This document shows positions 10,081 to 51,700 of a stretch of 64,000 nt of DNA, one piece after another. The notes beneath the pieces were generated by a model. The model worked only from the letters and a program-made list of their open reading frames with translations, ran no database searches and had not been told where the DNA came from. The translations under genes were made by a program, and so were the position numbers. The stretch's first letter is position 1. Every line of letters begins with the position of its first letter. The stretch comes from a virus (Duplodnaviria; Heunggongvirae; Uroviricota; Caudoviricetes): IMG/VR virus record IMGVR_UViG_3300025012_000032. One strand, given 5' to 3'.

Positions 10081-10134
10081 ATGTACAGGAGCAAATGAGG
10101 TATAAATTTTTATTAGAAAGAAGGAGAGATTTTG

Positions 10135-11460
10135 ATGGAAAAAGTATTGGAAATCGTAGAACAACTTCAAGGGACTAGTGGTAGGAATGATAAAGAGGGA
10201 ATCATTCGAGAAAATAAAGACAACCAATTACTTAAAGATATTTTTAAATTTGTCTATAGTATTGAAATTAAAACAGGGATCAAACGCAAGAAACTTGAGA
10301 AGAAAGTAAAATCTAAATCAACTGCTAAAATTACAGATTTCTATAGTCTTAGAGATTTCCTTGTTGAAAATGGGACTGGTTCAGATGAAACAATTGCAAA
10401 TATACAACAATTTTTATCTGAGCAAAATGATAGATTAAAAGAATTATACACTCAAATTATTCTTCAAGATTTAAGGGGTGGTCTTAGTGAAAAAACTATT
10501 AATAGTGCTTTAGGATATGAATTTATCTACATACACAAATTAGAAAAAGGTGAAGTGGCAGAACCAAGACATTTAAAACTGCTTAAAGGGAAAGAATTTG
10601 GTATATATAAAAAGGTTGATGGTTATCGAGCAGAAATTGAAGTTGGTAATGGTAAAGTAAAAATCATGTCATCGGGTGGGGAGTTATTTAAAGAATTAGT
10701 GGACATAGAAACTGTTTTGTTGAGTTCAAATTTGCCTCATGGAGTATTTGCTTGCGAGTTGCTTGCAATTGATTCTGAGGGTACTATGACAAGAATGGAG
10801 GTGTTTAATAAGACTGGTTCACTATTACGAAGAGATGGTATTAAACAAGGAATTGAGGTTAACGTATTTAATTTCATTCCAGATAATGGATTTTATGAAG
10901 GAAAACATTCTACAACTTGCAGAGAAAGAAAAGCATTGGCAAAAGAATTGGTTGATAAGATTAATTCTCCTTTGATTAAAAATGTTGATCCGTTTTATAT
11001 TGGTAAAGATTTAACTCAAATTGATTATTGGTTTGAAAAAATGATTGAGCAAGAAGATGAAGGAATTATGGTTCTTCCAATGGATCAGAAATATAATGGT
11101 AAAAAGTCATATCAACAAATGCTAAAAATTAAAACTGAAAATGAAGCAGATTTACGCATAGTTGGGTTTGAGCGTGGAGAGAAAGGTAAGGCATTTGAAA
11201 ATACTTTAGGCAAAATGCTTGTTAATTACAAAGGAAATACAATTAATGTTATGGCAGGATATAAGATTAAATATGATTCTGTAAAGTATGATGATAGGTT
11301 GGTAAGGGATTATATTTGGAATCATCAAGACGAATTGTTGGGCAAGATTGTGAAAGTGCGTTACATGGATGAAACCACAAATGATAGTGGTGGAATTGAT
11401 TTAAGAATGTGTAGATTGATTGAATATAGGGACGATAAAACAGAAGAGTCTTATAATTAA
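10135..11460 (+). CDS. ATP-dependent DNA ligase
   Basis: Nucleotidyltransferase motif I KKVDGYR (KxDGxR). Motif IV-like EGIMV. Motif V-like LKIK. The length and layout are as in phage ATP-dependent ligases. Confidence 0.7.
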   Translation: MEKVLEIVEQLQGTSGRNDKEGIIRENKDNQLLKDIFKFVYSIEIKTGIKRKKLEKKVKSKSTAKITDFYSLRDFLVENGTGSDETIANIQQFLSEQNDRLKELYTQIILQDLRGGLSEKTINSALGYEFIYIHKLEKGEVAEPRHLKLLKGKEFGIYKKVDGYRAEIEVGNGKVKIMSSGGELFKELVDIETVLLSSNLPHGVFACELLAIDSEGTMTRMEVFNKTGSLLRRDGIKQGIEVNVFNFIPDNGFYEGKHSTTCRERKALAKELVDKINSPLIKNVDPFYIGKDLTQIDYWFEKMIEQEDEGIMVLPMDQKYNGKKSYQQMLKIKTENEADLRIVGFERGEKGKAFENTLGKMLVNYKGNTINVMAGYKIKYDSVKYDDRLVRDYIWNHQDELLGKIVKVRYMDETTNDSGGIDLRMCRLIEYRDDKTEESYN

Positions 11461-15998: not shown

Positions 15999-16147
15999 TA
16001 TTTGAGAAAGGAAAAATTATGAATTGGTGTAAAAGTCCAAGGAAATAAATCTTGATTTTCTACATAGAAAAGGGGTATAATAAACACTAAATAAAGAAAT
16101 AATATATCTTATCAACAAACTTCAAGAGAAGGGAGATAAGATATATT

Positions 16148-16381
16148 ATGACAACCATTCCAACGTCAAACGGTTATATTAAGTCATTTTTTGTTCTTGG
16201 AAATGAGTCAGGTAAAGCGTTTATCAATCATCATAGTAGTAAAGTTTTAATTTCAGATCCAATGAAGTCAAGAATGTTTGATTCTTATAAGGATGCATTG
16301 GATTTTAATGTACAATTTAAAAATAATTATTCTGAAAAATTATTTGTATATCAGATTAGAGTTACAGTAGAATTGGTTTAG
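16148..16381 (+). CDS. Hypothetical small protein
   Basis: GAAGGGAGA RBS. Confidence 0.45.
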   Translation: MTTIPTSNGYIKSFFVLGNESGKAFINHHSSKVLISDPMKSRMFDSYKDALDFNVQFKNNYSEKLFVYQIRVTVELV

Positions 16382-16511: not shown

Positions 16512-17663
16512 ATGTTAACTTCATGTAAAGAAAATCAATATCTTGTATTTTATCTTGATGATGGGAAAAATGTTAAATATAATTTATCAACAGGCGAAAC
16601 TATTGGAAAACTTGGAAAACCAGTAAAAGATATTCGCACACAACTTAGAGGAAATGATTTACTACAAGTTATCAATTCATTTCAGGATAAAAATTATAGT
16701 AATTTCTTAAATTTTCTGGATAGAAATTTTATCAATAAATCACATTCGGAAAAATATCATTACGGCAGCAGGGTAGATCGCATTACAAATATAGGTAGTT
16801 TCTTATCTAAAATTGAGAATTATAAATATCTTGAACAATATTTTGCATGTGGGTTGAAAAAACTTGATCCTAAAATTAGATACAAATTAACTGAAATTCC
16901 AAAAAACCTAATTAAATTATGTAAAACGCATGATATTGAATTAAATAACGATTTAATAGATTCCTATAAATTAAGTCCAGATTTATTTTCTAACTTATTA
17001 AATTATGAATTTACAACTATAAACAAAATGAACATTCAAGATATATTGTATTCAAATGAATATGGTAAAAACAAATTCGATCAATTAATAAAGACACATA
17101 ATTACAAACCAACATCGTTATTACAATACATAGATAATTTAATGACATTCGAGGCTTTAGATAACTTCCATTCAGTGGTTGGTGAGTTATTGGATTATTG
17201 CAACATGATGAGCAAAATAAGTCCAAAATATGAAAAGTATCCAAAGAATTTTTTAACAACTCATAAGATTGCCACAAGAAATTATACTCGTTTAATACAA
17301 AAGTTCGTAGAAGAAGATTTTAAAAAAGTTATTGATCTAAAATTAGAGCATACATATGATAAGTTTAAAATTGTTTATCCTAAAACTACACAAGATATTA
17401 AAGACGAGGCAGTACAGCAAAATCATTGTGTAGCAAGTTATATACAAAATGTCATTGATGGTAAAACGCATATTTTATTCTTAAGGGATAAAAAAAATAT
17501 TGAAAGGAGTTTAATTACATTAGAAATTAAAAATTATAAAGTGGTTCAGGCCAGAGGAAAATTTAATAGAGACGTAACCAAAGAGGAACAAGGTGTTATT
17601 AATAAGTACAATGAAAAATTAAATAAAATTTATAATAAAAGAAAAGAGGAAATAGCATGTTAA
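16512..17663 (+). CDS. Hypothetical protein, possibly PcfJ-like
   Basis: GACAGGAGGAAA RBS. The C-terminal segment QQNHCVASYIQNV...VVQARGKFN is reminiscent of the PcfJ-like family. That call is made from memory and not verified. Confidence 0.5.
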   Translation: MLTSCKENQYLVFYLDDGKNVKYNLSTGETIGKLGKPVKDIRTQLRGNDLLQVINSFQDKNYSNFLNFLDRNFINKSHSEKYHYGSRVDRITNIGSFLSKIENYKYLEQYFACGLKKLDPKIRYKLTEIPKNLIKLCKTHDIELNNDLIDSYKLSPDLFSNLLNYEFTTINKMNIQDILYSNEYGKNKFDQLIKTHNYKPTSLLQYIDNLMTFEALDNFHSVVGELLDYCNMMSKISPKYEKYPKNFLTTHKIATRNYTRLIQKFVEEDFKKVIDLKLEHTYDKFKIVYPKTTQDIKDEAVQQNHCVASYIQNVIDGKTHILFLRDKKNIERSLITLEIKNYKVVQARGKFNRDVTKEEQGVINKYNEKLNKIYNKRKEEIAC

Positions 17664-18097: not shown

Positions 18098-18109
18098 GTA
18101 AAATATAGT

Positions 18110-18159
18110 ATTGTGCTTTCTAGAAAACGTTGATATAAGCCACTTTTAGAAAGCACAAT
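18110..18159 (+). terminator. Long hairpin (stem of about 16 bp, ATTGTGCTTTCTAGAAAA...TTTTAGAAAGCACAAT)
   Basis: Inverted repeat after the stop codon, with no classical U-tract. Confidence 0.4.
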
Positions 18160-18204
18160 ATAAGATAAAACGAATCTTTCATAGGTTAGAAAGGAGTTTA
18201 TTTT

Positions 18205-20027: not shown

Positions 20028-20300
20028 TTGGCAAAAACAGAAGTAATATTAACTTCACAAGGTAATCATGGAGGGTATTTAATATATTGTCCAGGTTGTA
20101 AATGTCATCATGTTTTTGATATTAGATGGAATTTTAATGGAGATTATGAAAAACCAACATTTACTCCTTCCATGTTAATAAACAATAGTAGACCTGAATC
20201 TAGATGTCATAGTTTTGTAACAGAAGGGAAAATTCAATATTTATCAGATTGTTTTCATGAGTTTGCAGGACAGACGTTGGATTTAGAAGATATTGATTAA
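20028..20300 (+). CDS. Cys/His-rich hypothetical protein (CPGCKCHH...RCHSF)
   Basis: AAGGAGGAAAA RBS followed by TTG at 20028, in frame with the track ORF. Confidence 0.5.
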   Translation: MAKTEVILTSQGNHGGYLIYCPGCKCHHVFDIRWNFNGDYEKPTFTPSMLINNSRPESRCHSFVTEGKIQYLSDCFHEFAGQTLDLEDID

Positions 20301-20317
20301 AAGAGGAGTATGATGGA

Positions 20318-20509
20318 ATGAAAAAGATTTTAGATTGTACTTTAATCAGTGATGATTTGTATGAAAATTTAATATTATCTTACAAGGAAATGTTAACAGC
20401 ACTTAAATTTATTGAAGAAGTTTTTCCTGATGTTTTTATAGCATTAAGTATTGATCCTTATGGATTATTAAACGATGCAAGAGAGGTTTTAAAAACACTA
20501 ACCAAATAA
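20318..20509 (+). CDS. Hypothetical small protein
   Basis: AGAGGAGTATGATGG RBS. Confidence 0.4.
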   Translation: MKKILDCTLISDDLYENLILSYKEMLTALKFIEEVFPDVFIALSIDPYGLLNDAREVLKTLTK

Positions 20510-20547
20510 ATCTCAAATTTTCTGGGACTTTAGAAAGGAGTATAATA

Positions 20548-20736
20548 ATGAATAAAGAATATATGCCACTGTATGTAATTTATTATCATAATGAGATATC
20601 TGGAAAGTTTGAACCTTATCAGAGCGTATGTGGTATCACAGTTTTTTATATGAGTATAAATGATGCTAAAAAGCAATTGAAAAGAATAACTAATTATCCT
20701 GAGCATTATGAAATAGTTGAATATGTAGCAAAGTAA
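20548..20736 (+). CDS. Hypothetical small protein
   Basis: GAAAGGAG RBS. Confidence 0.45.
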   Translation: MNKEYMPLYVIYYHNEISGKFEPYQSVCGITVFYMSINDAKKQLKRITNYPEHYEIVEYVAK

Positions 20737-20756
20737 AAGTAAAATTGAATTAAAAC

Positions 20757-20801
20757 TTGTAATTCTACAATAACTAAGATATAATTATTGTAGAATTACA
20801 A
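20757..20801. promoter_or_regulatory. 17-bp perfect inverted repeat (TTGTAATTCTACAATAA, 11-nt loop, TTATTGTAGAATTACAA)
   Basis: Read from the sequence. It lies between gene 20548..20736 and the methyltransferase gene, and no U-tract follows. It could be an operator or an RNA structure. Confidence 0.45.
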
Positions 20802-20814
20802 AATAAGAAATGAG

Positions 20815-22146
20815 TTGATACATATGGGAAGTTCACTAATCGGGGATAGCAAGCTCAATTTTTTCCCAACGGAAACTTGGGAGACATATCGTTTGCTAGG
20901 ATTATTAGGCAGAATTGATATTGACTATTATAAGAAGAGTTATCTGAAAGAATATTACACAGAGCAAGGTTTATATCAAGAAATAGCAATGAAATCACTC
21001 GACAACCAAGTACCTATAGACTACTGCTATTACGATAAATGGTTGAATGATAAAGATTATGATAAAATTAAGCAATATTGTGAGTTTACATTGGGACATG
21101 GGAATCAGTTTCCAATAGTTGTTGCTGATCTTTTTGCTGGAGAAGGTTTATGGCTTGATAGTTTAAAATCTTTTATCCCTAAGAAAAACAATAGCAATGA
21201 CTTTTTATTGGTTTCTAATGAATTAGAAGAAAATCGACATAAAGAAATTGAGAAAAACATTAATATTGATGATTCATATAATAAATCATTTGAAGAATTA
21301 AGGATGCCCAAAAACTCAATTTCTCTCATGCTTTACAATTGTCCATATGGAAGTACAAACGGAATAAGAAATGTCAAGCACTATTTAAACCTTATTTTAG
21401 AAAGACAAATTATCTACAACCCCTCAACATCAAAAGACTACAAAACAGGTTACATCGTCTGCGTAATTCGCAAAGATGATTTTCTTGATTCATTAGACAT
21501 CTTATCTAAAAACTTTGATATACTTAAAAACTCAATCTATAAAACTAATCCAGAGGAATATGCTAAGTTTAAGCAATATATATTCATTGCCCACCTGAAA
21601 CGATTCCCCTATGACTTATCAAATACTATGCAAGCAATGGATTTCCAAAAGCAATACAATGATGTAAAAGTAATAATCGAATCCGAGCCAGAATTTAAAC
21701 TATCACAATATAATACTTATCAATCAATTAATTATCCATACATCGACTATGATACAGCAAAAGAAAATAATAAATATATCGAAGCACCTACTACTCATAT
21801 TAGTAAAAATGATTCAATATGGAAATGGGTAAAAGGAATTACTGAATTAAAAGATTTAGGTGAAGAAAAATTAGTTGTTCCTAAACCATTGAAATTAGGT
21901 GAAATTAGTAATCTTCTAGCATCTGGAATGATTAATGGAGAAATATCATTAGAAGATGGTACTGGTAGACATGTAGCAATTGGTGGTGCTAAATCTATTG
22001 AGAAGAAAGAAGTAAGTAAATATAATGATGAGAATGGTGATAGTTATACTGAGACAAAGATTATTAAAATGAGCTTACCATACTTAAACATATTATGTTC
22101 TGATAATGGTAAATTGATTATAAAAGAGTTAGGAGATAGTGAATGA
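20815..22146 (+). CDS. Putative SAM-dependent DNA methyltransferase (gamma-class amino-MTase-like)
   Basis: VVADLFAGEGLWL resembles motif I (D/ExFxGxG). An acidic strand VSNELEE follows. LYNCPYG is an NPPY-like motif IV about 75 aa downstream. Confidence 0.5.
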   Translation: MIHMGSSLIGDSKLNFFPTETWETYRLLGLLGRIDIDYYKKSYLKEYYTEQGLYQEIAMKSLDNQVPIDYCYYDKWLNDKDYDKIKQYCEFTLGHGNQFPIVVADLFAGEGLWLDSLKSFIPKKNNSNDFLLVSNELEENRHKEIEKNINIDDSYNKSFEELRMPKNSISLMLYNCPYGSTNGIRNVKHYLNLILERQIIYNPSTSKDYKTGYIVCVIRKDDFLDSLDILSKNFDILKNSIYKTNPEEYAKFKQYIFIAHLKRFPYDLSNTMQAMDFQKQYNDVKVIIESEPEFKLSQYNTYQSINYPYIDYDTAKENNKYIEAPTTHISKNDSIWKWVKGITELKDLGEEKLVVPKPLKLGEISNLLASGMINGEISLEDGTGRHVAIGGAKSIEKKEVSKYNDENGDSYTETKIIKMSLPYLNILCSDNGKLIIKELGDSE

Positions 22147-24710
22147 TACCATACCTTAGAACAACAGATAAAAATACGATAAATTGTAATGCTGATTTAG
22201 TAATTCTTGATTCAAATGAACCAATATTAATTTCTCTATGTGATTTACATATCAAGAACAGAAAAATATGTAGTGATTTAATCTCTCATTCTTATCATAT
22301 TACTTTAAGAGATAGAGAAGATATATTCTTTGAACAAACATTGTATGGTAGAGAAAATCATTATCGCTATAAGTCAGACAGAATGGAAAACGATTTAACA
22401 CATACAATTATTTACAATACTAAAATAAATGATTATTGTATTAATTGGAATAATGAAGATAAAAATGATATCCTTACAAAATATTTAAGGAATATTCATT
22501 ATTTACCAGTTACAAGTGAAATTGTTAAAATGATTTTAGACAAAGATGACGAAACAAATGCTAAATATAAAAGTAATTATAGTAATTATGGATGTGTTAG
22601 TGAATGTACTGTTTATACTAATAATCCTATGTATACTGATTTAAAGGTATTTAAGATTAATGTAACTTGGTTTAAACAGAGTTTAAATGCTTTGACATTA
22701 GAAGGATATGCAGAAGATTTTGATTGGAGTAAAATTGAAGATATAGAAGACTATATATTCGCATTCTTAGATAAAATTAAAGAAAGATTGAAACAGAATG
22801 TAAGAGTTTTGTTTGATCCTAAGAATATTAATCAGAAAATGTTTGAAGGAAAGATGAAGCCATTTGATGGTCAAGTTCCAATTATTCAGGCAGGGTTAGA
22901 GGTTTTAAAAAGAAGTAGATTTGTTTATTTAGCTTGTACTCAAGGTTTTGGTAAGAGTTTGAGTACAGCAAAAATAAATCATTGTCATTTATATCAAAAC
23001 AAGAAAACTTATGTTACTTTGATTATGGCTCCTGCAATTACACTGTCTCAGTGGAAAGATGAAATTGAAAATAGCATAGGAGATAAAATTAATATTTTTA
23101 CAATTAAGAAAACTTCAGAATTTATTAAAATTTATAATAAAACTCAATTGCAATTTGATAAACCTACATATTTCCTAGTTGGTAAAGAAACATTTAAACT
23201 TGATGCAAAACGTGTATCTGGAATTAATATTAGAACTATGGAAATAAAACATAGAAAAGAAGTAGAACATGGTCGTTATTATCATAGCATAGATGAAGTC
23301 ACTGAAAAAATAACCATAGCATGTTGCCCTGATTGTGGCAGACCTTTGCAAAATGAATTAAGGAAAAAGGAAGATGTGTTTTTTACTGCAAAAGATTTTG
23401 AAGGCAATCCAAAGAAAAGTAATTACAAATGTTCAAATTGTAATGCAGTTTTATGGCAATCTACATATGATAAAACTAAAAAGAGTAGTTTGATTAGATT
23501 TATTAAAACTAAAAATATTAATTTTGATTCTGTCGGGATCGACGAAGCGCATCAGAACAGAAATGGAGAATCGATTATCGGTAATTCCACAAGGACACTA
23601 TTTAATTATGCTAAGAAGATAATGTTGCTTTCCGGTAGTTCAAATTCAGGATATAGTTCAAGTTTTCACAGCCTATTATTAGGATTAATACCAAATAAAC
23701 TCAAAGCAAATGATGTTATGGAAATGGAGAAATTTATTAAGACTTATGGAACATTAATGGCGGTCTCTAAAAAGAAAGATGGAGAATATTATCGTTCAGG
23801 TCGTAGTGAAATTAAAGATAGCGAGTTCAAAGAGATAGAAGGCGTGAATCCAATTTGCTTTGCTAAATACTTAGTTGAGAACTATATTTTTGCCACTTTA
23901 GACGATCTAGGAAAGGATTTGCCTGACTTAAATGAGTTTTATGTACCTATCAGTCAAACAGATGAAATGGAACGCTTAGAGCGGCATTTATGGGGAGAAA
24001 TTAAGTCAGCAAATGCTTTCAATGCTAAAATGTATGAAGATAGTATAATCAAGCATTATATTAATAATCCTTTTGATTGGAATTCTATTCCTATTAATCG
24101 AGGTGATGAAAGTTATAAAGAAGTTCAACCTAAATGTATTAATGATTGTATTTTACCAAAAGAACAAAAATTATTAGATATTGTTTTACAAGAAGTTTCC
24201 GAAGGAAGAAAATGTTGCGTATATGTTGACTTTAACAACGGTGGGGAATATATGCAAGGCAATACTATTGCAAAAAGGATTGAATCTTTATTAACAAAAA
24301 ATAAGATTCGGTGTTTTACGTTAAAAACTTCGACCGCTACTTATGACAGAAAGGAATTATTAGACAAGAAGAAAGATGATTTTCAGGTATTAATTACGAA
24401 TGCAAAATTAGTGGAAGTCGGGCTGAATCTTACATACTTATCCAGTTTTATAAATTTTATGCCATCGTATCATTATGAAACTGTTGCTCAGAGCAATAGG
24501 CGTGGTTATAGGGCTAATAGCACACTAGAAAATAGGATTTATCATCTTTATTATGAAAATAGTTGTGAGAATGGAATTATTAAGAGATATCAACGTAAAA
24601 TGGCAGAAGCACAAGCCATTGAAGGTAAATTCGATGCTTGTTTAGAAGATGATGAGAGTATTAGAACTGCTAGTAAATTAGGTAAGAAGATCAATGAAGG
24701 AGTTGTATAA
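22143..24710 (+). CDS. SF2 helicase (DEAH box, SNF2-like) with an internal zinc-ribbon insertion
   Basis: Motif I CTQGFGKSLS. Motif II GIDEAHQ. Motif III LLSGSSN. Motif V/VI region KLVEVGLNLTYLS and QSNRRGYR. Zinc-ribbon insertion CCPDCGRPL...CSNCNA. The start overlaps the MTase gene's stop. Confidence 0.65.
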   Translation: MIPYLRTTDKNTINCNADLVILDSNEPILISLCDLHIKNRKICSDLISHSYHITLRDREDIFFEQTLYGRENHYRYKSDRMENDLTHTIIYNTKINDYCINWNNEDKNDILTKYLRNIHYLPVTSEIVKMILDKDDETNAKYKSNYSNYGCVSECTVYTNNPMYTDLKVFKINVTWFKQSLNALTLEGYAEDFDWSKIEDIEDYIFAFLDKIKERLKQNVRVLFDPKNINQKMFEGKMKPFDGQVPIIQAGLEVLKRSRFVYLACTQGFGKSLSTAKINHCHLYQNKKTYVTLIMAPAITLSQWKDEIENSIGDKINIFTIKKTSEFIKIYNKTQLQFDKPTYFLVGKETFKLDAKRVSGINIRTMEIKHRKEVEHGRYYHSIDEVTEKITIACCPDCGRPLQNELRKKEDVFFTAKDFEGNPKKSNYKCSNCNAVLWQSTYDKTKKSSLIRFIKTKNINFDSVGIDEAHQNRNGESIIGNSTRTLFNYAKKIMLLSGSSNSGYSSSFHSLLLGLIPNKLKANDVMEMEKFIKTYGTLMAVSKKKDGEYYRSGRSEIKDSEFKEIEGVNPICFAKYLVENYIFATLDDLGKDLPDLNEFYVPISQTDEMERLERHLWGEIKSANAFNAKMYEDSIIKHYINNPFDWNSIPINRGDESYKEVQPKCINDCILPKEQKLLDIVLQEVSEGRKCCVYVDFNNGGEYMQGNTIAKRIESLLTKNKIRCFTLKTSTATYDRKELLDKKKDDFQVLITNAKLVEVGLNLTYLSSFINFMPSYHYETVAQSNRRGYRANSTLENRIYHLYYENSCENGIIKRYQRKMAEAQAIEGKFDACLEDDESIRTASKLGKKINEGVV

Positions 24711-24726
24711 ATGGTAAAATAAATAT

Positions 24727-24755
24727 TTGACATAATGTCTTACACATGTTATTAT
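24727..24755 (+). promoter_or_regulatory. Sigma-A-type promoter: TTGACA, 17-nt spacer, TGtTATTAT
   Basis: Near-consensus hexamers immediately upstream of the HNH gene. Confidence 0.5.
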
Positions 24756-24790
24756 ATAAATATAAAAAAAATAAAGAAAGGAAATTGATT

Positions 24791-25672
24791 TTGACAAGAG
24801 AAGAAAGAAATAAATATAATTATTGGTTAATAAGAAGGATTATTAATGGTATTGTGGAAAAACAATGTTCTCAATGTAAGGAATGGAAAGAAGATAATCT
24901 AAATAATTTTTATATGATAAATAAAAAGAAGCCGAACTTGGGATTTACTCCAAGATGCCGAAAATGTGGCACAAAAGCATCCGTAGATAGATATGCAAAA
25001 AGTCCTGAAAGAATGAAAGAATACGCTATTACTTATAGAGCTGAACACATAGATAAATGTATAAGCGATATAAAACAATGGAGAGCAGAAGTTCAAGATC
25101 ATGATCATAAAAGAGAATACGAAATACAATATTATAAAAAATATCCTGAAAAACATAAATTATATCAACAAAATCATCGACAACATGATATTACAGAAGC
25201 CGAATGGAGAAGTTGCTTAAAAGTATTTGATAATACTTGTGCTTATTGTGGTCTACCTTATAAACAACATATTGTAAAAAGAATGGGAAAATACATAATT
25301 ATGAATTTTCATAAAGAACATTCTGATGATAAGGGCTATAATGACTTAAGAAACGCCCTACCTGCGTGCAAAAGTTGCAATAGTCGTAAGCATGATTCAG
25401 ATATGGAGGAATGGTATAGGCGACAAAAATTCTTTTCTGAAGAAAGATATAATAAAATAATTTGGTGGCTAACTGATGGTTATAAGGATTACATAGAAGA
25501 TAAACCGCCATATAGAATCATTAGAGAAAAGAATAAAGATAATGCCAAATTCCATTTTAATTTATGGAGCGTAGATGAAATGAGAAACACCTTGGAAATA
25601 ATATCTACAAAAGATAAGAGAAAAGACTTAGAAGAAGATATTGAAATTTTTCTTAAAAGAAAAGGAGGTTAA
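24791..25672 (+). CDS. HNH endonuclease-domain protein with an N-terminal zinc ribbon
   Basis: CAYCGLPY...NFHKEHSDDKGYNDLRNALPACKSCNSRKHD matches the HNH (CxxC...H...N...CxxC) signature. The N-terminus carries CSQCKEWK...CRKCG. The start is TTG at 24791 behind AAAGAAAGGAAA. The track's ATG at 24746 lies inside the promoter. Confidence 0.6.
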   Translation: MTREERNKYNYWLIRRIINGIVEKQCSQCKEWKEDNLNNFYMINKKKPNLGFTPRCRKCGTKASVDRYAKSPERMKEYAITYRAEHIDKCISDIKQWRAEVQDHDHKREYEIQYYKKYPEKHKLYQQNHRQHDITEAEWRSCLKVFDNTCAYCGLPYKQHIVKRMGKYIIMNFHKEHSDDKGYNDLRNALPACKSCNSRKHDSDMEEWYRRQKFFSEERYNKIIWWLTDGYKDYIEDKPPYRIIREKNKDNAKFHFNLWSVDEMRNTLEIISTKDKRKDLEEDIEIFLKRKGG

Positions 25673-25678
25673 TTAATC

Positions 25679-26137
25679 ATGAAATATCGAGAAGGAGATA
25701 AAGTAGAAATCATTGATCAATCTTCAGAGTTTTATAAAAAGAAAGGTTACGTAATGACAAAACGAGAAATCAATAATAAAATATGGATTGCTTTCCCACC
25801 TGACAAATCAACTGGAAATGGTTTTGAACTAGAGCAAATAAAACTTATAAAAAGTGCTATTAAAGGAAAAGAAGTTGAACCTTGTGGATGTTGTGTATCA
25901 AGTACAGGTTATATATCTGCTAATGTATTGCTTGAAGAATGTCCAATAAAGAGAAAATTAGGACAACATGAAGATTCTATTGATATGAATTTTAAAGAAA
26001 AAGTTATGGTATGCACTTGTGTAAATTCTAATTACTCTTGGGGTGTGCCAACTTGCGAAAATTATAAAGGTCTTAGGGAAGTAACTCGTGGTGGTAGAAA
26101 AGTATGGAGAGTATTTTGTGATGCTGTAGAGGTTTGA
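25679..26137 (+). CDS. Hypothetical Cys-containing protein
   Basis: AAAGGAGG RBS. Confidence 0.5.
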   Translation: MKYREGDKVEIIDQSSEFYKKKGYVMTKREINNKIWIAFPPDKSTGNGFELEQIKLIKSAIKGKEVEPCGCCVSSTGYISANVLLEECPIKRKLGQHEDSIDMNFKEKVMVCTCVNSNYSWGVPTCENYKGLREVTRGGRKVWRVFCDAVEV

Positions 26138-26166
26138 TTATTTAAATTGAGGAGAGTGTTTAATTA

Positions 26167-26457
26167 ATGAAAAAGATTATAGAATTAAGCTTCCAAACTC
26201 CATTAGAATTTGTAGCAAAATATATGCATGATGATTTAGCATTTGACGCTGTTAATTTTGAGGGTTATTCTAAAATGACTATCAAGAAAATGATAGCAAA
26301 AATTAGCAAAGATGATATTGATGATTTAATTGAGGCATTTGTGAAATTTGCACCAGAAGTTGGATTTCAATATTGTGTAATACATAGTATTTTTCATGAG
26401 TATGATAAATGTCCATTTTGTCAATTAGGCATACGATTAGATTATAAAACAATATAA
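26167..26457 (+). CDS. Hypothetical small protein
   Basis: GAGGAGAGTG RBS. Confidence 0.45.
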   Translation: MKKIIELSFQTPLEFVAKYMHDDLAFDAVNFEGYSKMTIKKMIAKISKDDIDDLIEAFVKFAPEVGFQYCVIHSIFHEYDKCPFCQLGIRLDYKTI

Positions 26458-43593: not shown

Positions 43594-46500
43594 TTGACAA
43601 TATTAGATGAAGATTTTGTACATCTACACACGCATCACGAGCACAGTAATTTACGCTTTCGTGATTCGGTTAATAAGATTAAAGATATGATTCTTCATGT
43701 TGATGGATTAGGAAATCGATCTATGGCACTCACGGATCATGACGCACTTTCTGGACACATAAAATTCCTTAATACAGTCAAAGAGTTAAAATCTAAAGAT
43801 AAAATACATAAAGATTTTAAACCAATTCTAGGAAATGAAATATATTTAGTTGATGAAGAGATAATGTATGAAGAAATGAAGGATCAAAATAAAAAACCTA
43901 AGTTCTACCATTTTCTAATTTTAGCCAAGGATAATGAAGGTCATGAGCAAATGAGAAAGTTATCTACTAGAGCATGGACGAGATTATTCAGTTATAAAGG
44001 TGTTGAAAGAGTTCCTACATTCTATAGTGATATAGAATCCATTGTAAGCAAAAATAAAGGGCATTTGATAGCATCAAGTGCCTGTCTTGGAGGAATGTTG
44101 CCACATTTGATTTTGAGTCTGTTACAAGAAGAAAATGAAGAGATTCAAGAACAAATAAAAGATGAATTAGATGATTTTTTAAATTGGTGTCTTGATTTAT
44201 TTGGAGAAGATTTTTATATTGAATTGCAACCCTCTCTACAACAAGAGCAGATAGATTTTAATAGAATGGCAGTAAGAATAGCAAAGGCATATAATATAAA
44301 ATGGATAGTGACAACCGATGCACATTATTTAACAGCAAAAGATAGAGAAATTCATAAGGCATTCTTAACCTCAGAAGATGATTTAAACAACAATCGTGAA
44401 GTAGATATGTTTTATAGCACAACTCATTTCTTCACCGTAGATGAGATATTTAAGAATATGGATTATTTAGAAACTGAGGATATTGAAAAAGCAATATTAA
44501 ACACTAAAGAAGTTGCTGATAAAGTTGTAGGATATGATTTTTTTGCAAAATCTATTATTCCCTTAAGGGAATTACCTAAAAAATCAGAGTGGTATCCAGT
44601 TAATCAAAAAATATTAAGTAAGTATCCATATATAAAAGAACTTTATGAAGATATTGAGAGTCAGCATACTTTCTTGATTACTCAAACATTTAAAGGAATA
44701 GAAGAAAGAGGAATCAAAAAAGAAAAATTAGACGATATATTAGAAAGAGTTAATATTGAATGTAAAGAAATCACAGGAGCAAGCAAAGCAAAACATCAGC
44801 CAATGGGAGCATACCTAAATACCATGCAAAAAAATGTAGATATTATCTGGGAAGAAGCCGAATCATTTGTTGGGCCTGGAAGGGGATCTGCTAATGGATA
44901 TATTATAAATTATTTATTGGGCATTACTCAAGTAAATCCATTAGAACAAGGTGTAGAAATGCCTCATTGGAGATTCATGTCGGCAGAAAGACCAGATATT
45001 TTTGACATCGATATAGATTATAGTTCTCATAAAAAAGATGTAGTAATGGATAAAATAGTGAAGTATTATCAAAGTATCGGTGGAGATGCGATAAGAGTAT
45101 GCACCTTTGGAACAGAAACATCTAAATCAGCTATTCAAACAGCTTGCAGAGGATTACATATCAACAATGACGTTGCATTATATCTAAGTTCTTTAGTGCC
45201 TATAGAAAGAGGAAAAGTGTGGAGCATTCATGATTGTTTCTATGGAGATCCAGACAATGGAAGAAAAGCAGTAACCGAATTTAGAAATATGGTAAGCGAG
45301 TATACGGATAAAAATTTATTAAACGTTATTCTAGGAATTGAAGGATTAATTAATAAAAGGTCTACCCACGCTTGTTTTGATAAAGAGTCGCTAGTCTCAA
45401 CATCGGAAGGACTAAAAAGGATTATAGATATAAAAATTGGAGATAAGGTGTTAACACATAAACGCAGATTCAAACCTGTAATAGATTTAATTAAAACAAC
45501 AGCAGGCTCAATGTATACTCTAAAAACAAAATCTTCATTTCCTATAGAGGTCACAGAAGATCATCCTTTTTATGTAAGAGAAAGAAGCGATACCGAAGGT
45601 GGAAAAATATTTAGTAAACCAAAATGGAAGCAGGTATATGAACTATCAATTGGCAAGGACTATGTAGGGATTCCTATTAATAACGAATCCATTATTCCTG
45701 AAAATGATTTAACCTCTCTACCTTTTAATTGTAAAGATTTTTGGTGGATTATAGGAAGATATATTGGAGATGGATGGACAGAAAACTACACTCGTGAGAA
45801 AAAAATAAAAAATAGAAAAACAAATAAATGGGTTGAAAGAAGAATCATTATTTGTTGTTCAAAAGTTAATGAGAATGAAGTGCAAGAAATAACACAATAT
45901 TTGGATAATTTAAATTTCAAATATCGAGTTGAGGAAGTTAAAACAACTTATAAAGTTCATATACAAAACAAAGAACTCTATTCTTATCTTCAAGGATTTG
46001 GGAGATATGCATATGGCAAATATATTAATCAAGACGTATTTAATTTACCAAGAGATTATGTTGCAGTATTTTTAGAAGGTTATATAAGTGCAGACGGACA
46101 CCTTCGAACAGAAAATAATACGTATACCATAAAAACAATTAGTAAAAAATTAGCTATTGGAACAATGCAACTAATTAATAAAGCATTTCATAGATATGCT
46201 ACTATTGGTATATTACCTCCAAAAACTGAGTATATCGAGGATAGAGAGGTCGAATCAAAAGAAAAATATGAAATTAAGTTTACTAAAGATACTAGAAAGA
46301 AAGAGAAAAGTTTCTATGAAGATGGTTATATTTGGACACGACTATCTTATTTAAAAAGAAAAATGGAACCTAAAACAATGTATAATTTGACTGTTTTAGA
46401 CGACAATTCATATGTTGTACATGGTTTAGGTGTTCACAATTGCGGTGTAATTATTCTGAATGAACCAATCACAAAGCATAATTCAGTAATGAGAAGCCCA

Positions 46501-48738
46501 AGTGGAGAATTAATATCCGCATATGAATTACATGACTCAGAACAAGTATCAAATCTAAAGTATGATTTTCTAAATACCAAAACAGAATCAATGCTTCAAT
46601 TGACAATGGAAATGCTAGTGAAAAATAAAAAAATTGAATGGCAAGGTAGTTTGAGGAAAACATATAATAAATATCTACATCCAGACGTTATAGACTTTAA
46701 ATCAAAAGAAATGTGGGATATTCTATGTAGAGGAGAATTACTCTCTTGTTTTCAATTTGAATCGAGTGTCGGTGAACAAGCAATTAAATTAATTCAACCG
46801 CAAAATTTAATTGATGCATCCAATGGAAATACAGTTATGAGATTAATGGTAGAAAATGGAGAACAGCCATTAGAAAAATTCGTTAGATATAAAAATAATA
46901 TCTCTGAATGGTATAAGGACATGAAAAAGTTCGGATTAAATGAAGTACAAGTCAATATAATGGAAAAGCATTTATTACAAGACTATGGAGTATGTTCAAG
47001 TCAAGAGAAAATGATGTTGTTAACTATGGATAAAGATGTTGCAGGATTTGGTGTAATAGAGAGTAATAAATTGAGAAAAGGCGTAGCTAAAAAACAACAG
47101 AAATTGATTGACGATGCTAAAACATTGTTTTTTGAATGGGGAGAAAAAGCCAATGCCCCTAAAATTTTATTAGAGTATATTTGGAATGAACAAATAGCCT
47201 TACAGCTTGGGTATTCTTTTTCAATTTTGCATTCCGTAGCTTATACAATCATTCTTATTCAACAATTAAATCTAGTCTATTATTTCCCTCCTATTTATTG
47301 GAATACGGCAGTATTGATGGTAGAGTCGGGGGCAGTTGATAGAGAAACCTGTGATGATTCCGATATTGAAGCAAAAGAAAGAACTACCAATTATGGAGAA
47401 ATTGCAAAAGCAATAGGAAAACTACAGGCTAAAAAAATTAATATATCATTACCATATGTAAATAAAGCAGGACAAGGATTTTTACCTAATGAAGAAAACA
47501 ACGAAATTATTTTTGGATTTAAAGGAATTATGAAAATCAACAATGAAACAGCACAAACCATAATGCAAAATAGACCATATGCAAATTTAAAAGATTTTCA
47601 TGAGAGATTGGTATTAGTTAAAAAAGAAGTGACTTTGAAAACTGGCAAAACTCAAATGAGGTCTTTAATAGCGGAGGGTCAGACCATAATGTTAATTAAG
47701 GCAGGAGCATTTGATAAAATTGAAAATAAATCAAGAGAAAAAATCTTAGAAGATTATCTGCGTCTATTGAATCCTTCTAAGCAAAAATTAAATTCTAAAG
47801 ATATTGCTAAAATTGCAGAAATGGGAATCATACCTTCTAATTTAAAAGAAGAAATTAAATTTTATAATTTCAGAGAATATTTAATGAGTATGCCAAAGCA
47901 AAAAGATGAACAAACAAAAACAATTACTTGGTATAAAGTGCATGATGAATTCAATGAAGAAGATACGGAATATGCGAATAATTTTTTCATGGAGAATTTT
48001 GCAAATGAAATGGAGGAAAATAAAGATTATAAATATGATGAAGAAGGATATTTATTAATTGCATTAGGAACCCCACGTAAGGGATCTTTTGAATTTGTTT
48101 ATAGGAGTAAAATTGCTCAATTAAATAAATGGATTAATACAGAAGAATGCATAAATACGTATACGAATAATATTTTTCAAAATATTAAAAACGAGTATAT
48201 GCAAGGCAATATTAGTTCTTGGGAAATGGCAAGCATGAATTACTACTATAATGTTCACGAGCTTGCAGGAATTGATCATAATAAATATGGAGTAGTGGAC
48301 TTTAATGATTTACCTGAAGAACCTGTAGTCATTGGTTTTACCAAGTATAAAGGCTTACAATATCCTAAATTCCAATTAAATAGAATTGTAGGAACAGTAT
48401 TAGATAGAGATAAAAACAAACACTCTGTTACAATATTAACCCCTACTGGAGTTGTTGTATTAAAGTTTTATGCAGGTCAATTTTCTTTCTATGATAAAAC
48501 CATATCTAAAGATGTAGGAATAGCAGATGAAAATGGTAAAATCAAAAAGGTAGTATTGGAAAATGGATGGTTTTCTAGAGGTAGCTTGATCATGGTCACA
48601 GGCTTCAGAAGAGGAGATATCTTTAAACCAAAAAGATACAAAAACAGTATTTATCAACATGCTCTATCTAAAATTGTAGAAGTGCGAGAAGATAATGAAT
48701 TAATTCTTCAAAATGATAGAGTACAATTGGTGGAATAA
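43594..48738 (+). CDS. dnaE: DNA polymerase III alpha subunit (DnaE-type, N-terminal PHP domain), intein-containing
   Basis: PHP motif VHLHTHHEHSNLRFRDS. DIDIDYSSHKKD. The catalytic THA|[intein]|CGVIILNEP. A C-terminal OB fold. Confidence 0.85.
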   Translation: MTILDEDFVHLHTHHEHSNLRFRDSVNKIKDMILHVDGLGNRSMALTDHDALSGHIKFLNTVKELKSKDKIHKDFKPILGNEIYLVDEEIMYEEMKDQNKKPKFYHFLILAKDNEGHEQMRKLSTRAWTRLFSYKGVERVPTFYSDIESIVSKNKGHLIASSACLGGMLPHLILSLLQEENEEIQEQIKDELDDFLNWCLDLFGEDFYIELQPSLQQEQIDFNRMAVRIAKAYNIKWIVTTDAHYLTAKDREIHKAFLTSEDDLNNNREVDMFYSTTHFFTVDEIFKNMDYLETEDIEKAILNTKEVADKVVGYDFFAKSIIPLRELPKKSEWYPVNQKILSKYPYIKELYEDIESQHTFLITQTFKGIEERGIKKEKLDDILERVNIECKEITGASKAKHQPMGAYLNTMQKNVDIIWEEAESFVGPGRGSANGYIINYLLGITQVNPLEQGVEMPHWRFMSAERPDIFDIDIDYSSHKKDVVMDKIVKYYQSIGGDAIRVCTFGTETSKSAIQTACRGLHINNDVALYLSSLVPIERGKVWSIHDCFYGDPDNGRKAVTEFRNMVSEYTDKNLLNVILGIEGLINKRSTHACFDKESLVSTSEGLKRIIDIKIGDKVLTHKRRFKPVIDLIKTTAGSMYTLKTKSSFPIEVTEDHPFYVRERSDTEGGKIFSKPKWKQVYELSIGKDYVGIPINNESIIPENDLTSLPFNCKDFWWIIGRYIGDGWTENYTREKKIKNRKTNKWVERRIIICCSKVNENEVQEITQYLDNLNFKYRVEEVKTTYKVHIQNKELYSYLQGFGRYAYGKYINQDVFNLPRDYVAVFLEGYISADGHLRTENNTYTIKTISKKLAIGTMQLINKAFHRYATIGILPPKTEYIEDREVESKEKYEIKFTKDTRKKEKSFYEDGYIWTRLSYLKRKMEPKTMYNLTVLDDNSYVVHGLGVHNCGVIILNEPITKHNSVMRSPSGELISAYELHDSEQVSNLKYDFLNTKTESMLQLTMEMLVKNKKIEWQGSLRKTYNKYLHPDVIDFKSKEMWDILCRGELLSCFQFESSVGEQAIKLIQPQNLIDASNGNTVMRLMVENGEQPLEKFVRYKNNISEWYKDMKKFGLNEVQVNIMEKHLLQDYGVCSSQEKMMLLTMDKDVAGFGVIESNKLRKGVAKKQQKLIDDAKTLFFEWGEKANAPKILLEYIWNEQIALQLGYSFSILHSVAYTIILIQQLNLVYYFPPIYWNTAVLMVESGAVDRETCDDSDIEAKERTTNYGEIAKAIGKLQAKKINISLPYVNKAGQGFLPNEENNEIIFGFKGIMKINNETAQTIMQNRPYANLKDFHERLVLVKKEVTLKTGKTQMRSLIAEGQTIMLIKAGAFDKIENKSREKILEDYLRLLNPSKQKLNSKDIAKIAEMGIIPSNLKEEIKFYNFREYLMSMPKQKDEQTKTITWYKVHDEFNEEDTEYANNFFMENFANEMEENKDYKYDEEGYLLIALGTPRKGSFEFVYRSKIAQLNKWINTEECINTYTNNIFQNIKNEYMQGNISSWEMASMNYYYNVHELAGIDHNKYGVVDFNDLPEEPVVIGFTKYKGLQYPKFQLNRIVGTVLDRDKNKHSVTILTPTGVVVLKFYAGQFSFYDKTISKDVGIADENGKIKKVVLENGWFSRGSLIMVTGFRRGDIFKPKRYKNSIYQHALSKIVEVREDNELILQNDRVQLVE
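45373..46440 (+). mobile_element. Intein with a LAGLIDADG homing endonuclease, inserted at the DnaE catalytic HAxG site
   Basis: N-terminus CFDKESLVSTSEG. Two LAGLIDADG motifs (IIGRYIGDGW and FLEGYISADGH). C-terminus VHGLGVHN followed by +1 Cys. The extein rejoins as THA-CGVII. Confidence 0.7.
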
Positions 48739-48756
48739 ATTAAAGGAGTGATACAT

Positions 48757-51700
48757 TTGGAAGAAGATTACGAAGACATATTAGTAAAATGCAAGGTTCG
48801 TTTAACACAACAAAGGTTTCCTAAAAAGGAAGTTATTAATAACGGAGATTTCGGAATAATTATTGTTACTGTATTGGATGTTTTGCAGGGAGATCCACAA
48901 ATAAACAAGTGGGGAACAATTACTTTAACTGGTAATATGTGTGAAATAAATGATGAAGATATATATATCGTGACAGCTAGAGAGTTTATGCATGAGAAAT
49001 ATAAGTTGCAGTATCAAGTGGTATTTATGTGTACAGATATAAAATTAACCAATAAAGCGGATCAATATAAATTTTTAGAAAAAATACTACCTGAGAAACA
49101 ATGTGTAGATATATTCAAAGCATTTGAAAATCCAATGGAAATATTAGAAAATAAAGATGTTAAGGCATTATGTACTATAAAAGGAATCGCAGTACCCACT
49201 GCATTAAAATTAATAGAAAAATATGAAAATGGCAAAGATTATTCTGAAGCATATATTGAATTAGATAAGTATGGTTTGACTAAACATATGATAGATAAAT
49301 TAGTTGATTACTTTGGAAGTCCTAATACAGTAATTGCTAAAATTAATGAAAATCCATATCTATTAATTGATGAAGTAGATGGAATAGGATGGGAAACAGC
49401 AGATGAGATGGCATTAAATGGAGGATTAGGAGAATATTCAATTAATCGAATTAAAGCATATGTTAAATATTATCTATATGAAGAAGCTAATGAAGGAAAT
49501 ACATGGGTAGATATAGATGATTTATTGGATGCAGTAGATGGATCAATTAGTGCTGATTTGCCACAAGAGATTTTATCAGAAGCATTGAAAGAAATGAATG
49601 AGAAAAAGGTAATTTGGACTAATGAAGATAAAGATAAAATAGGTTTGATGAAATATTTCAAGTTAGAAAAAAATATCGCCGAAGAACTTCATAGATTAAA
49701 TTCAGTAGAAAATACATTTGGAATTGGTGATTGGAGAACAAAGATTAAAGGATTAGAAATAAGACAAGGTTGGGAATTTACAGATGAACAAATTGAAGGT
49801 ATTCAGGCAATATTAGAATATCAAGTAATAATGATAATTGGGGGAGCCGGAAATGGAAAATCGTCTACCGTAGCAGGAATGCTTGAAGTATTTAAAGAAA
49901 ATTATTCTTTTGCTCAAACTGCTTTGTCTGGTAGAGCATCTTGTAATCTAAGTGAAATTACTGGTGAAGATGGATATACAATACATAGATTATTAGGATA
50001 CAATCCTAAAGTTGGTTTTGTATATAATAAGAATAATAGATTACCTAAAGACATTATTATTCTAGACGAACTGAGTATGGTTGGAGCAGATATTTTTTAT
50101 AAATTAATCCAAGCTATCGAATCAGGATCAAAATTAATTATGCTAGGAGACAAACATCAGTTAGAAGCCATTGGCGTAGGCAATATTATGTTTGATATGA
50201 TAGAAAGTGGATATATCAAGTGTGTAGAATTAACTAAAATCCACAGACAAGCAGAAAAATCAGCAATAGTAACAGAAAGTATAAAGATAAAAGACCGGAA
50301 ACAAATAATTGATAAAAACTTTATGGGAAAGGAGATAAGAGGAGAATTACAAGATTTTGAACTAGATATATATAAAAACAAAGATACTACTCCTAAAAGA
50401 GTCGTAGCACATTTTAAAGAATTATTGCCAAAAACAGAGGATATTTTTGATATCCAAGTAGTAGTACCAATGAAAGAAAGAGGGAAAGCAAGTGCATATT
50501 ATCTAAACAACTTACTACAAGAGATTGTTATTGATACTGGAGTTAGCGAAAAAATAGATGTTGGAGAAAATTCAAAACATCTTTTTTCTATTTTTGTTGG
50601 AGATAAAGTATTAAACAATAAAAATAATTATGAGACTCTAAATGAAAATGGCGAAGAAATTCCAATTTATAATGGCGATTTAGGTATAGTCATAGGTATG
50701 GATGTTATAAGAAGAACATTAGTTGTCAATTTTAATAATAAGGGGAATATATATATTCCCAAAGCACATTTAAAGCATATTACTTTAGGTTATGCAATGA
50801 CGACTCATAAATGTATACCAAAAGATACTCATATTTTAACTGGCAAAGGTTTAGAAACAATAGAAGATTATATCAATATTGAAAAAATTGGCACATATGA
50901 GTACATGGGTGATGGTAATATCTTTAATGGATTAGAGATGGAAAAACCAAGTTTGATACATAATGTTGGCAAAGCAGAATGTAGAGAAATAACAACTAAT
51001 AATGGGTATTCCCTCACAGCTACATTAGATCATGGGATTGATGTTATCTCAGAAAATGGATATATTGTAAGAAAGGATTTTAAGGATTTAACATTAGACG
51101 ATCAGGTTATACTTGCTCAAAATACAAATGTATTTGGCAATATTGTTGACATCCCTGATGCATATTTTAATTATACGCTCGATGTTAGATCAATAATATA
51201 TACTAAACCTAAAATATTGGATGAAAAATTGGCATTGTTGCTTGGAATGATTGTAGCAGATGGAACTGTCAGACATGCACACATATGTTATGGCAAAATA
51301 AATAAAGAAGTTGTTGATGCTTTTATTGGAGTAGTAAAAAAAATATTTAATTATAGTTGTAGTATGAGATATAGTGAAGTAGGAAACATATATTTAGCAG
51401 AAATAAACTCTACTGATATAGTGTCTTTTCTAATGAATTTCGGAGGGTTGGAACCAAACAATAAGAGTATTCCTAATTTGATAAAACAATCAACAAAAAA
51501 TAATATTTGCTCTTTCCTTAAGGGCATGTTTGAGGATGGAGGAGTTCATCTTAAAGAAGGAAATTTTGATATGATTGAACTTACTCAGTCTAACAACAAA
51601 AAGCTGATAGCTGAAATACAATTACTTCTATTGAATTTAGGAATACTATCCTCCATTAAAGACTATAAAAAGTATGGGAAATCTGCTCATCTTAACACAT

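Follow-up and report, generated by a model that had tools for sequence, protein, structure and literature searches.

A conserved methyltransferase-like and SNF2-type gene pair behind a promoter-bracketing inverted repeat in the early region of an SPbeta-like phage

This study concerns positions 20757-24710 of a 64,000-nt stretch of viral DNA (IMG/VR record IMGVR_UViG_3300025012_000032, Caudoviricetes). The whole stretch is referred to as the window, and L- and P-numbers are labels of the loci and proteins with which it was compared. These positions form a self-contained early operon of two genes, and the phage is SPbeta-like and of low GC content. On the + strand, a sigma-70-like promoter (TTGTAA-17 nt-TATAAT, 20757..20785, matching the consensus at 10/12 positions) is bracketed by an inverted repeat with 17-bp perfect arms at 20757-20773 and 20785-20801 (whole element 20757..20801, assigned to neither strand). 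Behind it, on the same strand, lie a gene for a predicted gamma-class N6-adenine-type methyltransferase-like protein of 440 amino acids (aa), a divergent relative of DUF6094 recognised by family alignment and fold (20824..22146), and a gene for a predicted SNF2-family double-stranded DNA translocase of 855 aa, recognised by Pfam and fold (22143..24710). A gene for an HNH endonuclease follows, in a segment outside the conserved module. A sequence-only reading of this DNA had proposed that the three genes form one cassette, either an anti-restriction function or a phage-borne defence module. All three open reading frames (ORFs) were found where that reading had placed them, except that the methyltransferase gene probably starts at 20824 rather than at 20815. 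The first two genes are a conserved two-gene unit, present here in split form and among early genes, of a kind for which a role in the escape of invading DNA from restriction has already been predicted.

The methyltransferase-like ORF opens with a TTG codon (20815..22146, 443 aa). The family alignment makes the ATG at 20824 the likely true start, giving a protein of 440 aa that begins MGSSL. Taken alone, the window protein matched nothing in Pfam (E <= 0.1), PHROG, NCBIfam, PADLOC or the PDB sequences, and because these direct searches were empty, its identity was taken from a family alignment, a profile search and the predicted fold. It has 146 homologs, which come from metagenomes and a few genomes. 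The family alignment comprises 42 homologs with 38-86% identity to the window protein, and several positions are invariant throughout: D105 and G109 of the S-adenosylmethionine (AdoMet) motif I, DxFAGEG (DLFAGEG at residues 105-111 of the window protein); N135-E136, which includes the acidic residue of motif II; N175-x-P177-Y178 of motif IV; and P18-T19, inside a conserved N-terminal FYPT motif. Motif IV reads NPPY in most homologs and NCPY in the window protein (residues 175-178) and its subclade. As motif I precedes motif IV, the order is that of the gamma class. On proper alignment, the catalytic motifs I and N-x-P-Y are thus in place in every homolog, and both fold and motif order agree with the earlier assignment of a gamma-class amino-methyltransferase-like protein.

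With regard to the wider family, 18 of the 42 aligned members match PF19587, the 'Uncharacterised methyltransferase family (DUF6094)' (gathering threshold 22.8 bits), the best of them at E = 1.8e-8. Only 346 relatives were retrieved when the family profile was compared with 1.84 billion representative proteins. The distant ones are canonical DUF6094 proteins (1e-10 to 1e-17), some of which also give weak N6_Mtase or Eco57I matches. These profile matches place the subfamily beside PF19587 as its divergent sister. The AlphaFold (AF2) model of the window protein, with a mean predicted local distance difference test (pLDDT) score of 83.7, adopts a class I Rossmann methyltransferase fold. Its top Foldseek matches include ErmC', M.BseCI, HsdM and METTL5; the best fold matches are M.BseCI, HsdM/EcoKI M, M.TaqI, BsaXI, CamA and METTL5, and the longest structural alignments (188-214 residues) are those with M.BseCI, BsaXI, EcoKI M, CamA and M.TaqI. 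Only ~100 residues precede motif I. The C-terminal ~110 residues are beta-rich and modelled with lower confidence, and no target-recognition domain was recognised in the protein. Fold and motifs together support the prediction that the first protein is a gamma-class N6-adenine-type amino-methyltransferase-like protein.

The second ORF (22143..24710, 855 aa) exceeds the Pfam gathering scores of SNF2-rel_dom (30.1 bits, gathering 24.9) and Helicase_C (34.1 bits, gathering 23.5), with a further ResIII match of 18 bits that remains under its gathering score of 22.5. It also matches the middle of the 1881-position phrog_62 'DNA helicase' profile. The window protein carries a GFGKS Walker A motif and DEAH at residues 467-470. 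In 34 helicase homologs the Walker A GxGK, the DExH and the QxxRRGxR of motif VI are invariant, and so are Cys395, Cys398, Cys430 and Cys433, the four cysteines of a zinc-ribbon insertion (Cys4) in ATPase lobe 1 (23325..23441, + strand). The protein starts with a beta-rich domain of its own (~residues 1-235), in which no convincing catalytic pattern of a nuclease was found, nor a conserved D...(D/E)xK on strands. Compared with the PDB sequences, the family profile matched exclusively SNF2 remodelers. The structural model (pLDDT 81.4) gave Chd1, ISWI, INO80, SMARCAD1 and ZorD as top Foldseek matches, and CSB and Mot1 are also among the fold matches. The second protein is predicted to be an SNF2-type double-strand DNA translocase, in keeping with its earlier description as a superfamily 2 (SF2) helicase with a Cys4 insertion. 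One homolog of it, P0380 (1188 aa), contains a LAGLIDADG_3 domain, which suggests an intein.

The stop codon of the methyltransferase gene and the start codon of the helicase gene overlap as ATGA, with an AGGAG ribosome-binding site just upstream, and the two genes are probably translationally coupled, as had been proposed. Their linkage was assessed in 40 fetched loci with a methyltransferase homolog (28-86% identity; the window is excluded and some loci are duplicates of one phage), which stem from metagenomic viral contigs, the Virgibacillus profundi genome, Clostridium and Sarcina assemblies and a 188-kb replicon of Cetobacterium. In 39/40 loci (40-92% identity) a helicase homolog lies downstream of the methyltransferase gene on the same strand, the exception being cut by the contig end. 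The two genes abut or overlap in nearly all loci, with a wider gap in the Cetobacterium replicon. Virgibacillus profundi P3-H5, whose related prophage is cultivable, has a pair of 40% identity. Conversely, two loci retrieved with the helicase as seed have directly upstream of it a gene for a protein of 436-443 aa that is 35-41% identical to the window methyltransferase. P0147 (1417 aa) is a natural fusion, with a methyltransferase-like part at residues 5-413 and an SNF2 part at residues 738-1294. Both genes of the pair are under purifying selection, the ratio of nonsynonymous to synonymous substitution rates (dN/dS) being 0.09-0.17 for the methyltransferase and 0.09-0.12 for the helicase.

No reference from a cultured phage exists for the pair. 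In 50,697 deposited phage genomes, we found neither a DNA match to the locus nor a match to the methyltransferase. A tblastn search of the same genomes with the window helicase gave only 4 partial matches, all in unannotated 'Bacteriophage sp.' gut contigs, and P1 was not among them. Given that the pair is missing from this collection, which includes SPbeta-like isolates, we consider it accessory rather than core. More distant pairs are found elsewhere: a Lachnospiraceae genome assembly has a DUF6094 and SNF2 pair beside LPD1- and DarA_C-containing proteins, and the Thermoanaerobacterium plasmid pMU3262 encodes a DUF6094 protein (WP_015297548) and a DEAD/DEAH helicase (WP_014759523) with an ADP-ribosyltransferase as neighbour. 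Among plasmids, 308 records contain weak relatives of the helicase alone, and Bacillus accounts for 233 of these.

Two further observations were made on the relatives of the pair. Among L003, L006, L008 and L025, the identities of methyltransferase and helicase to those of the window are 76%/90% in L003 and 86%/79% in L006, and values of 72%/92% also occur. Such discordant identities point to recombination, with putative breakpoints inside the two genes or between them. Genes of the TnpB/OrfB_IS605 type (Cas12f1-like_TNB) are located a few kb from the pair in three unrelated loci (L002, 15177-16355; L041, 12312-13577; L042, 985-2184).

The inverted repeat upstream of the pair had already been described as perfect over 17 bp and devoid of a U-tract, and both features were confirmed; the promoter that it encloses had been missed. 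Lengthened to 20 nt, the arms of the repeat are still 95% complementary. When the window was simulated 200 times with a first-order Markov model, perfect stems with loops of 3-20 nt grew no longer than 15 bp, and 0/200 simulations reached 17 bp. The 17-bp inverted repeat is not a product of chance. As RNA, it would fold with -18.2 kcal/mol (z = -4.6). Its left arm overlaps the -35 box, the -10 box lies in the loop and the right arm spans approximately +1 to +17. L003, L006, L008, L014 and L025 retain both the GATATAAT -10 box and a -35 box of TTGTAA/TTGACA, which is consistent with a functional operon promoter.

The arms of the repeat vary among relatives in a way that preserves pairing. L006 has the same arms as the window with a compensatory change, T>C paired with A>G, and in L003 and L023 the GATATAAT box is conserved between arms that differ wholly from those of the window yet complement each other. 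In L001, the Virgibacillus prophage, the arms measure 14 bp and the loop, of 47 nt, contains a TGcTATAAT box. In L014 the promoter is retained and the left arm is lost, and both promoter and repeat are missing from relatives in which the pair lies directly behind another gene. No promoter-bracketing inverted repeat was found at the distant DUF6094 pairs of L037, L039, L040, L041 and L042. The repeat most likely controls the operon promoter. It may be an operator, as the sequence-only reading had it, with symmetric arms and drifting specificity, or else read-through transcripts may form a hairpin from it that serves, for example, as a processing site; as the arms covary, both readings fit.

Three other explanations of the repeat were considered and rejected. 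In SPbeta, MrpR binds repeated SPBRE operator sites (PMC10516654); a repeated operator of this type does not apply, the arm sequence of the repeat at 20757 being unique in the window. An intrinsic terminator was discarded because the + strand has no U-tract and the scanner calls a terminator only on the - strand, which is gene-less here. A connection with the upstream 62-aa ORF was also dismissed, the co-occurrence of the two being inconsistent among relatives. A scan of positions 20300-26200 against Rfam gave as its sole match a long non-coding RNA (lncRNA) below threshold, attributable to chance.

How might the pair work? On the reading that we put first, and to which we give slightly better than an even chance, it is a split form of the 'DNA methylase-helicase dyad' described in invasive elements (Iyer, Burroughs, Anand, de Souza and Aravind 2017, J Bacteriol; PMC5512222), and performs early, motor-coupled adenine methylation that shields phage DNA from restriction-type defences. 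Transcription of the operon would start from the sigma-70-like promoter that the inverted repeat encloses; the methyltransferase and SNF2 proteins would be synthesised in a coupled manner and assemble into a complex. In this complex, the SNF2 motor would track duplex DNA with consumption of ATP, carrying the methyltransferase along, and adenines would be methylated efficiently along the phage genome, most likely at N6. The mark would protect phage DNA from restriction-type defences of the host or of competitors, or else label it as self. Given its place among early genes, the pair would have replicating or progeny DNA as its substrate, unlike the DarB protein of phage P1, a packaged virion component whose target is the injected DNA.

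Several points weigh against this reading. The in-cis mechanism of DarB is not directly transferable, since an enzyme made after injection cannot protect the incoming genome. Sequence similarity to DarB is weak: with hhalign, the methyltransferase aligned with DarB at E = 0.035 and a probability of 1.5%, over motifs I-IV only, and the helicase at E = 4.4e-5 and a probability of 69%, around motif II and the insert. The window methyltransferase falls below every Pfam, PHROG, NCBIfam and PADLOC threshold, and its motif IV is NCPY, not NPPY. The fold matches of its model include METTL5 and HemK2, and enzymes of the NPPY type also methylate rRNA and protein glutamine. Finally, the activity of the pair, any target site and the substrate are putative. 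An extended version of the same reading, in which a dedicated, early, motor-driven machine would methylate the phage genome during its replication, defeat several restriction-type defences at once and be gated by a promoter with its -35 box and start site in the two arms of the covarying hairpin or operator, is considered tentative and rather doubtful.

The alternative that survives best, though we deem it unlikely, is that the pair serves phage DNA transactions and has no role in anti-restriction. In this case, the SNF2 protein would strip or remodel host proteins bound to DNA, whether nucleoid proteins, defence complexes or, in the manner of RapA, a stalled RNA polymerase, and the methyltransferase would be a DNA anchor or would set an epigenetic mark for replication, for a transcription switch or for packaging. 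The position of the pair would suit such a role, as it lies in the early/replication arm near genes for ligase, Sak4, DnaB-like, RecJ-like and DNA polymerase III (PolIII) proteins. SNF2 enzymes are protein-displacing translocases, with Mot1 and CSB among the fold matches; the LAGLIDADG domain of P0380 suggests an intein, an element typical of core replication genes; and the covarying inverted repeat, specific to this promoter, suggests tight regulation. Nevertheless, the absence of the pair from the deposited phage genomes makes it accessory, its distant relatives stand beside genes of anti-defence type (DarA_C, LPD1, ADP-ribosyltransferase) in plasmids and prophages, and the invariant NxPY argues for real methyl transfer.

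It is improbable that the methyltransferase-like protein modifies RNA or protein, for instance by forming m6A or m2G in rRNA or by methylating glutamine, with the 'helicase' acting on RNA or a ribonucleoprotein. The fold matches do include ErmC', METTL5, Trm14, KsgA and HemK2, and the lack of a recognised target-recognition domain would also be in line with such a substrate. However, the partner protein matches only SNF2-family translocases of double-stranded DNA, structural alignment is longest (188-214 residues) with DNA adenine methyltransferases of the gamma class, and distant members of the family match the N6_Mtase and Eco57I models. Shielding of phage DNA by motor-coupled adenine methylation remains the reading that we prefer for the two-gene unit.

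The third gene has a different history. The HNH ORF (24791..25672) encodes 293 aa; its frame opens at 24746 and the TTG at 24791 is the likely start. A public collection holds a protein of the same length that is 100% identical to it (P0384, 293 aa). The protein matches PF01844 HNH at 25.6 bits (cut-off 21.4), its zinc-binding cysteines are present, and its best PHROG is phrog_1035, of the endonuclease VII/HNH family (8.5e-18). The gene resides in an inserted segment (24780..25657, + strand): homology with L009 ends at window position 24779 and resumes at 25658, so that an 878-bp segment with the HNH gene corresponds to a 208-bp segment with a 59-aa ORF in L009. The promoter 3' of the helicase gene (24727..24755, + strand; TTGACA-17 nt-TATTAT, with TG) had been described as a consensus promoter of the HNH gene itself. 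The promoter does exist, but it is also found in L009, which has no HNH gene, and for that reason it is regarded as an element of the phage backbone that is used by the inserted gene. At 24791-24820, at the start of the HNH ORF, there is in addition a 12/12 consensus promoter (TTGACA-18 nt-TATAAT), the TTGACA box of which includes the TTG start codon; it would transcribe from within the HNH gene toward its 3' part.

In the relatives with 76-86% methyltransferase identity whose gene tables were examined, small unrelated ORFs lie 3' of the helicase gene, and tblastn gave no match for the HNH gene beside the pair in most other loci. The HNH protein has 144 matches in metagenomes, at varied places; no paralog was found within the window. 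Among the 40 fetched loci, L043 has an HNH gene (71% identity) 3' of the helicase, beyond a gene for a 453-aa DUF4379 zinc-ribbon protein (3775-5136), and L030 has an HNH relative (36% identity) ~1 kb 3' of the helicase. In L044 such a relative lies ~5 kb upstream of the methyltransferase gene, and in L011 it stands in an unrelated context with no pair present. On the simplest reading, the gene encodes a free-standing endonuclease of the homing type and occupies a variable slot beside a conserved gene. The sequence-only reading had also mentioned a plain homing endonuclease, and this option accords well with the sporadic occurrence, the sharp boundaries and the scattered paralogs. The recurrence of HNH genes near the 3' end of the helicase gene may reflect a target there. 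The slot seems to be a hotspot for inserted genes (HNH, DUF4379), and the discordant identities of the two pair genes are compatible with recombination around the insertion site.

It is very improbable that the three genes together form a phage- or prophage-borne defence or restriction-modification (R-M)-like system in which self is marked, the complex translocates and the HNH protein cleaves: although the order methyltransferase, helicase, nuclease resembles Type III or DISARM logic, ZorD, the SNF2 protein of a defence system, is among the fold matches, and HNH-family genes are located 3' of the helicase in L043 and L030 as well, most loci, including all close relatives, have no adjoining HNH gene, the insertion boundaries are mapped with the HNH gene in place of the 59-aa ORF, the DUF4379 gene intervenes in L043 and the HNH gene lies elsewhere in L044 and L011, no PADLOC system model matches, no conserved nuclease motif is seen in the pair, and the methyltransferase is of the gamma class and not of the beta class of Type III Mod. 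The modify-and-cleave unit of three genes that had been suggested is not supported. As to a conserved synteny of the three, methyltransferase and helicase are linked, whereas the HNH gene is not; measured against the refuting conditions that came with the sequence-only reading, its HNH part falls and its methyltransferase-helicase part stands. It would be wrong to score the third gene as a system component or to count the block as a phage-borne defence locus.

The pair is embedded in the early/replication arm of the window, where genes for an MrpR-like repressor, a ligase, PcfJ, Sak4, DnaB-like, RecJ-like and PolIII-alpha proteins are all on one strand; genes for a RecD2-like protein and a ribonucleotide reductase (RNR) belong to this arm likewise. 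The MrpR-like protein (284-1288) is a repressor with a tyrosine-recombinase fold that resembles the SPbeta master repressor (PF22822/PF22823). An ATP-dependent DNA ligase (10132-11460) and a PcfJ-like protein (16512-17663) are encoded in the same arm as the pair, and in the Virgibacillus prophage PcfJ lies directly 3' of the methyltransferase-helicase pair. LAGLIDADG/intein-type domains are present in three consecutive genes, those for PolIII alpha (43594-48738), the RecD2-like helicase (48748-52356) and the RNR large subunit (53630-56815), and this arm is unusually rich in selfish elements. The window has four other long hairpins of unique sequence, all outside ORFs of at least 120 aa, at 6619-6669 (19-bp perfect), 1270-1303 (14-bp perfect), 18109-18160 (17 bp at 94%) and 16099-16149 (15-bp perfect). 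The first of these exceeds the longest perfect stem obtained in the simulations (15 bp). The four hairpins may be RNA processing sites or terminators of early transcripts.

The most useful leads from this locus are a tractable split methyltransferase-motor pair and a covarying repeat that brackets its promoter. Among methylase-SNF2 dyads, P1 DarB is the only one cited here as experimentally studied. How an SNF2 protein helps a methyltransferase, and what is protected against, are still matters of conjecture. The present subfamily is compact (440 + 855 aa), yields good models, is under strong purifying selection and includes a fused variant, which makes it a tractable object for work on translocation-coupled methylation. 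If the extended version of the motor-coupled methylation reading is correct, the mechanism would be distinct from that of virion-delivered DarB and would provide a first function for the DUF6094 and SNF2 pairs of Bacillota plasmids.

Compared with known systems and judged by its motifs and gene content, the pair falls under neither the R-M systems of Type I and Type III nor DISARM or BREX. Type III systems have a beta-class Mod and a Res subunit with a PD-(D/E)xK nuclease domain, whereas the motif order here is that of the gamma class, and no conserved pattern of that nuclease was seen in the N-terminal domain of the helicase. With the PADLOC models of DISARM, BREX and other defence systems, no family was assigned to the methyltransferase and no partner genes were found nearby. 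The helicase gave only weak generic DpdE matches, the best at 1.6e-7, covering its C-terminal 150 aa. The DISARM- or BREX-like phage-borne defence module that had been considered is not supported. The HNH gene shares with free-standing phage HNH homing endonucleases its motif, its presence or absence with sharp boundaries in an intergenic slot, its scattered paralogs and a genome rich in other selfish elements, a likeness in sequence and distribution.

The pairs of PF19587 with SNF2/DEAD-box proteins, such as that of pMU3262, share superfamily, gene order and adjacency with the window pair. They differ in that canonical DUF6094 proteins have ~330-380 aa, whereas in the window subfamily, whose members have ~440 aa, the C-terminal domain is longer and a helical region is added at the N-terminus; the helicases are only 22-25% identical. 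P1 DarB (2255 aa) has the same architecture of a methyltransferase and an SF2/SNF2-like ATPase, and its motif IV, NVPF, is likewise a non-canonical N-x-P-aromatic. In contrast, darB adjoins the portal gene, whereas the window pair is found in the early arm behind a sigma-70-like promoter. DarB, a structural component of the virion head, acts in cis to shield the injected DNA against Type I enzymes (PMC5512222). The comparison with DarB drawn in the sequence-only reading holds at the level of architecture, that of a methylase-helicase dyad (PMC5512222), while direct sequence similarity is weak.

The closest parallel is the dyad itself, which is known either as a fusion within polyvalent proteins or as conserved neighbouring genes (PMC5512222). 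Iyer et al. proposed a motor-driven, translocation-coupled methylation of invading DNA for it, with DarB as the anti-restriction archetype (PMC5512222). In the window pair, as in the dyad, a gamma-class NPP(Y/F) adenine-methyltransferase-like domain is directly followed by an SWI2/SNF2 ATPase; both occur in phages, plasmids and conjugative elements, related loci neighbour LPD, DarA_C, PcfJ and ADP-ribosyltransferase genes, and a fused form exists. The differences are that the window pair consists of separate, coupled genes in an early operon and is not a packaged or transferred polyvalent protein, that no LPD36-type N-terminal domain was detected in its methyltransferase (Pfam, E <= 0.1), and that its helicase has its own N-terminal beta-rich domain and Cys4 insertion. 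In the dyad the N-terminal helix is capped by a TP motif in contact with the active-site Asn, whereas the N-terminus of the window protein reads FYPT, with the order PT. By its architecture, the pair is best described as a split member of the dyad and not as a close homolog of DarB.

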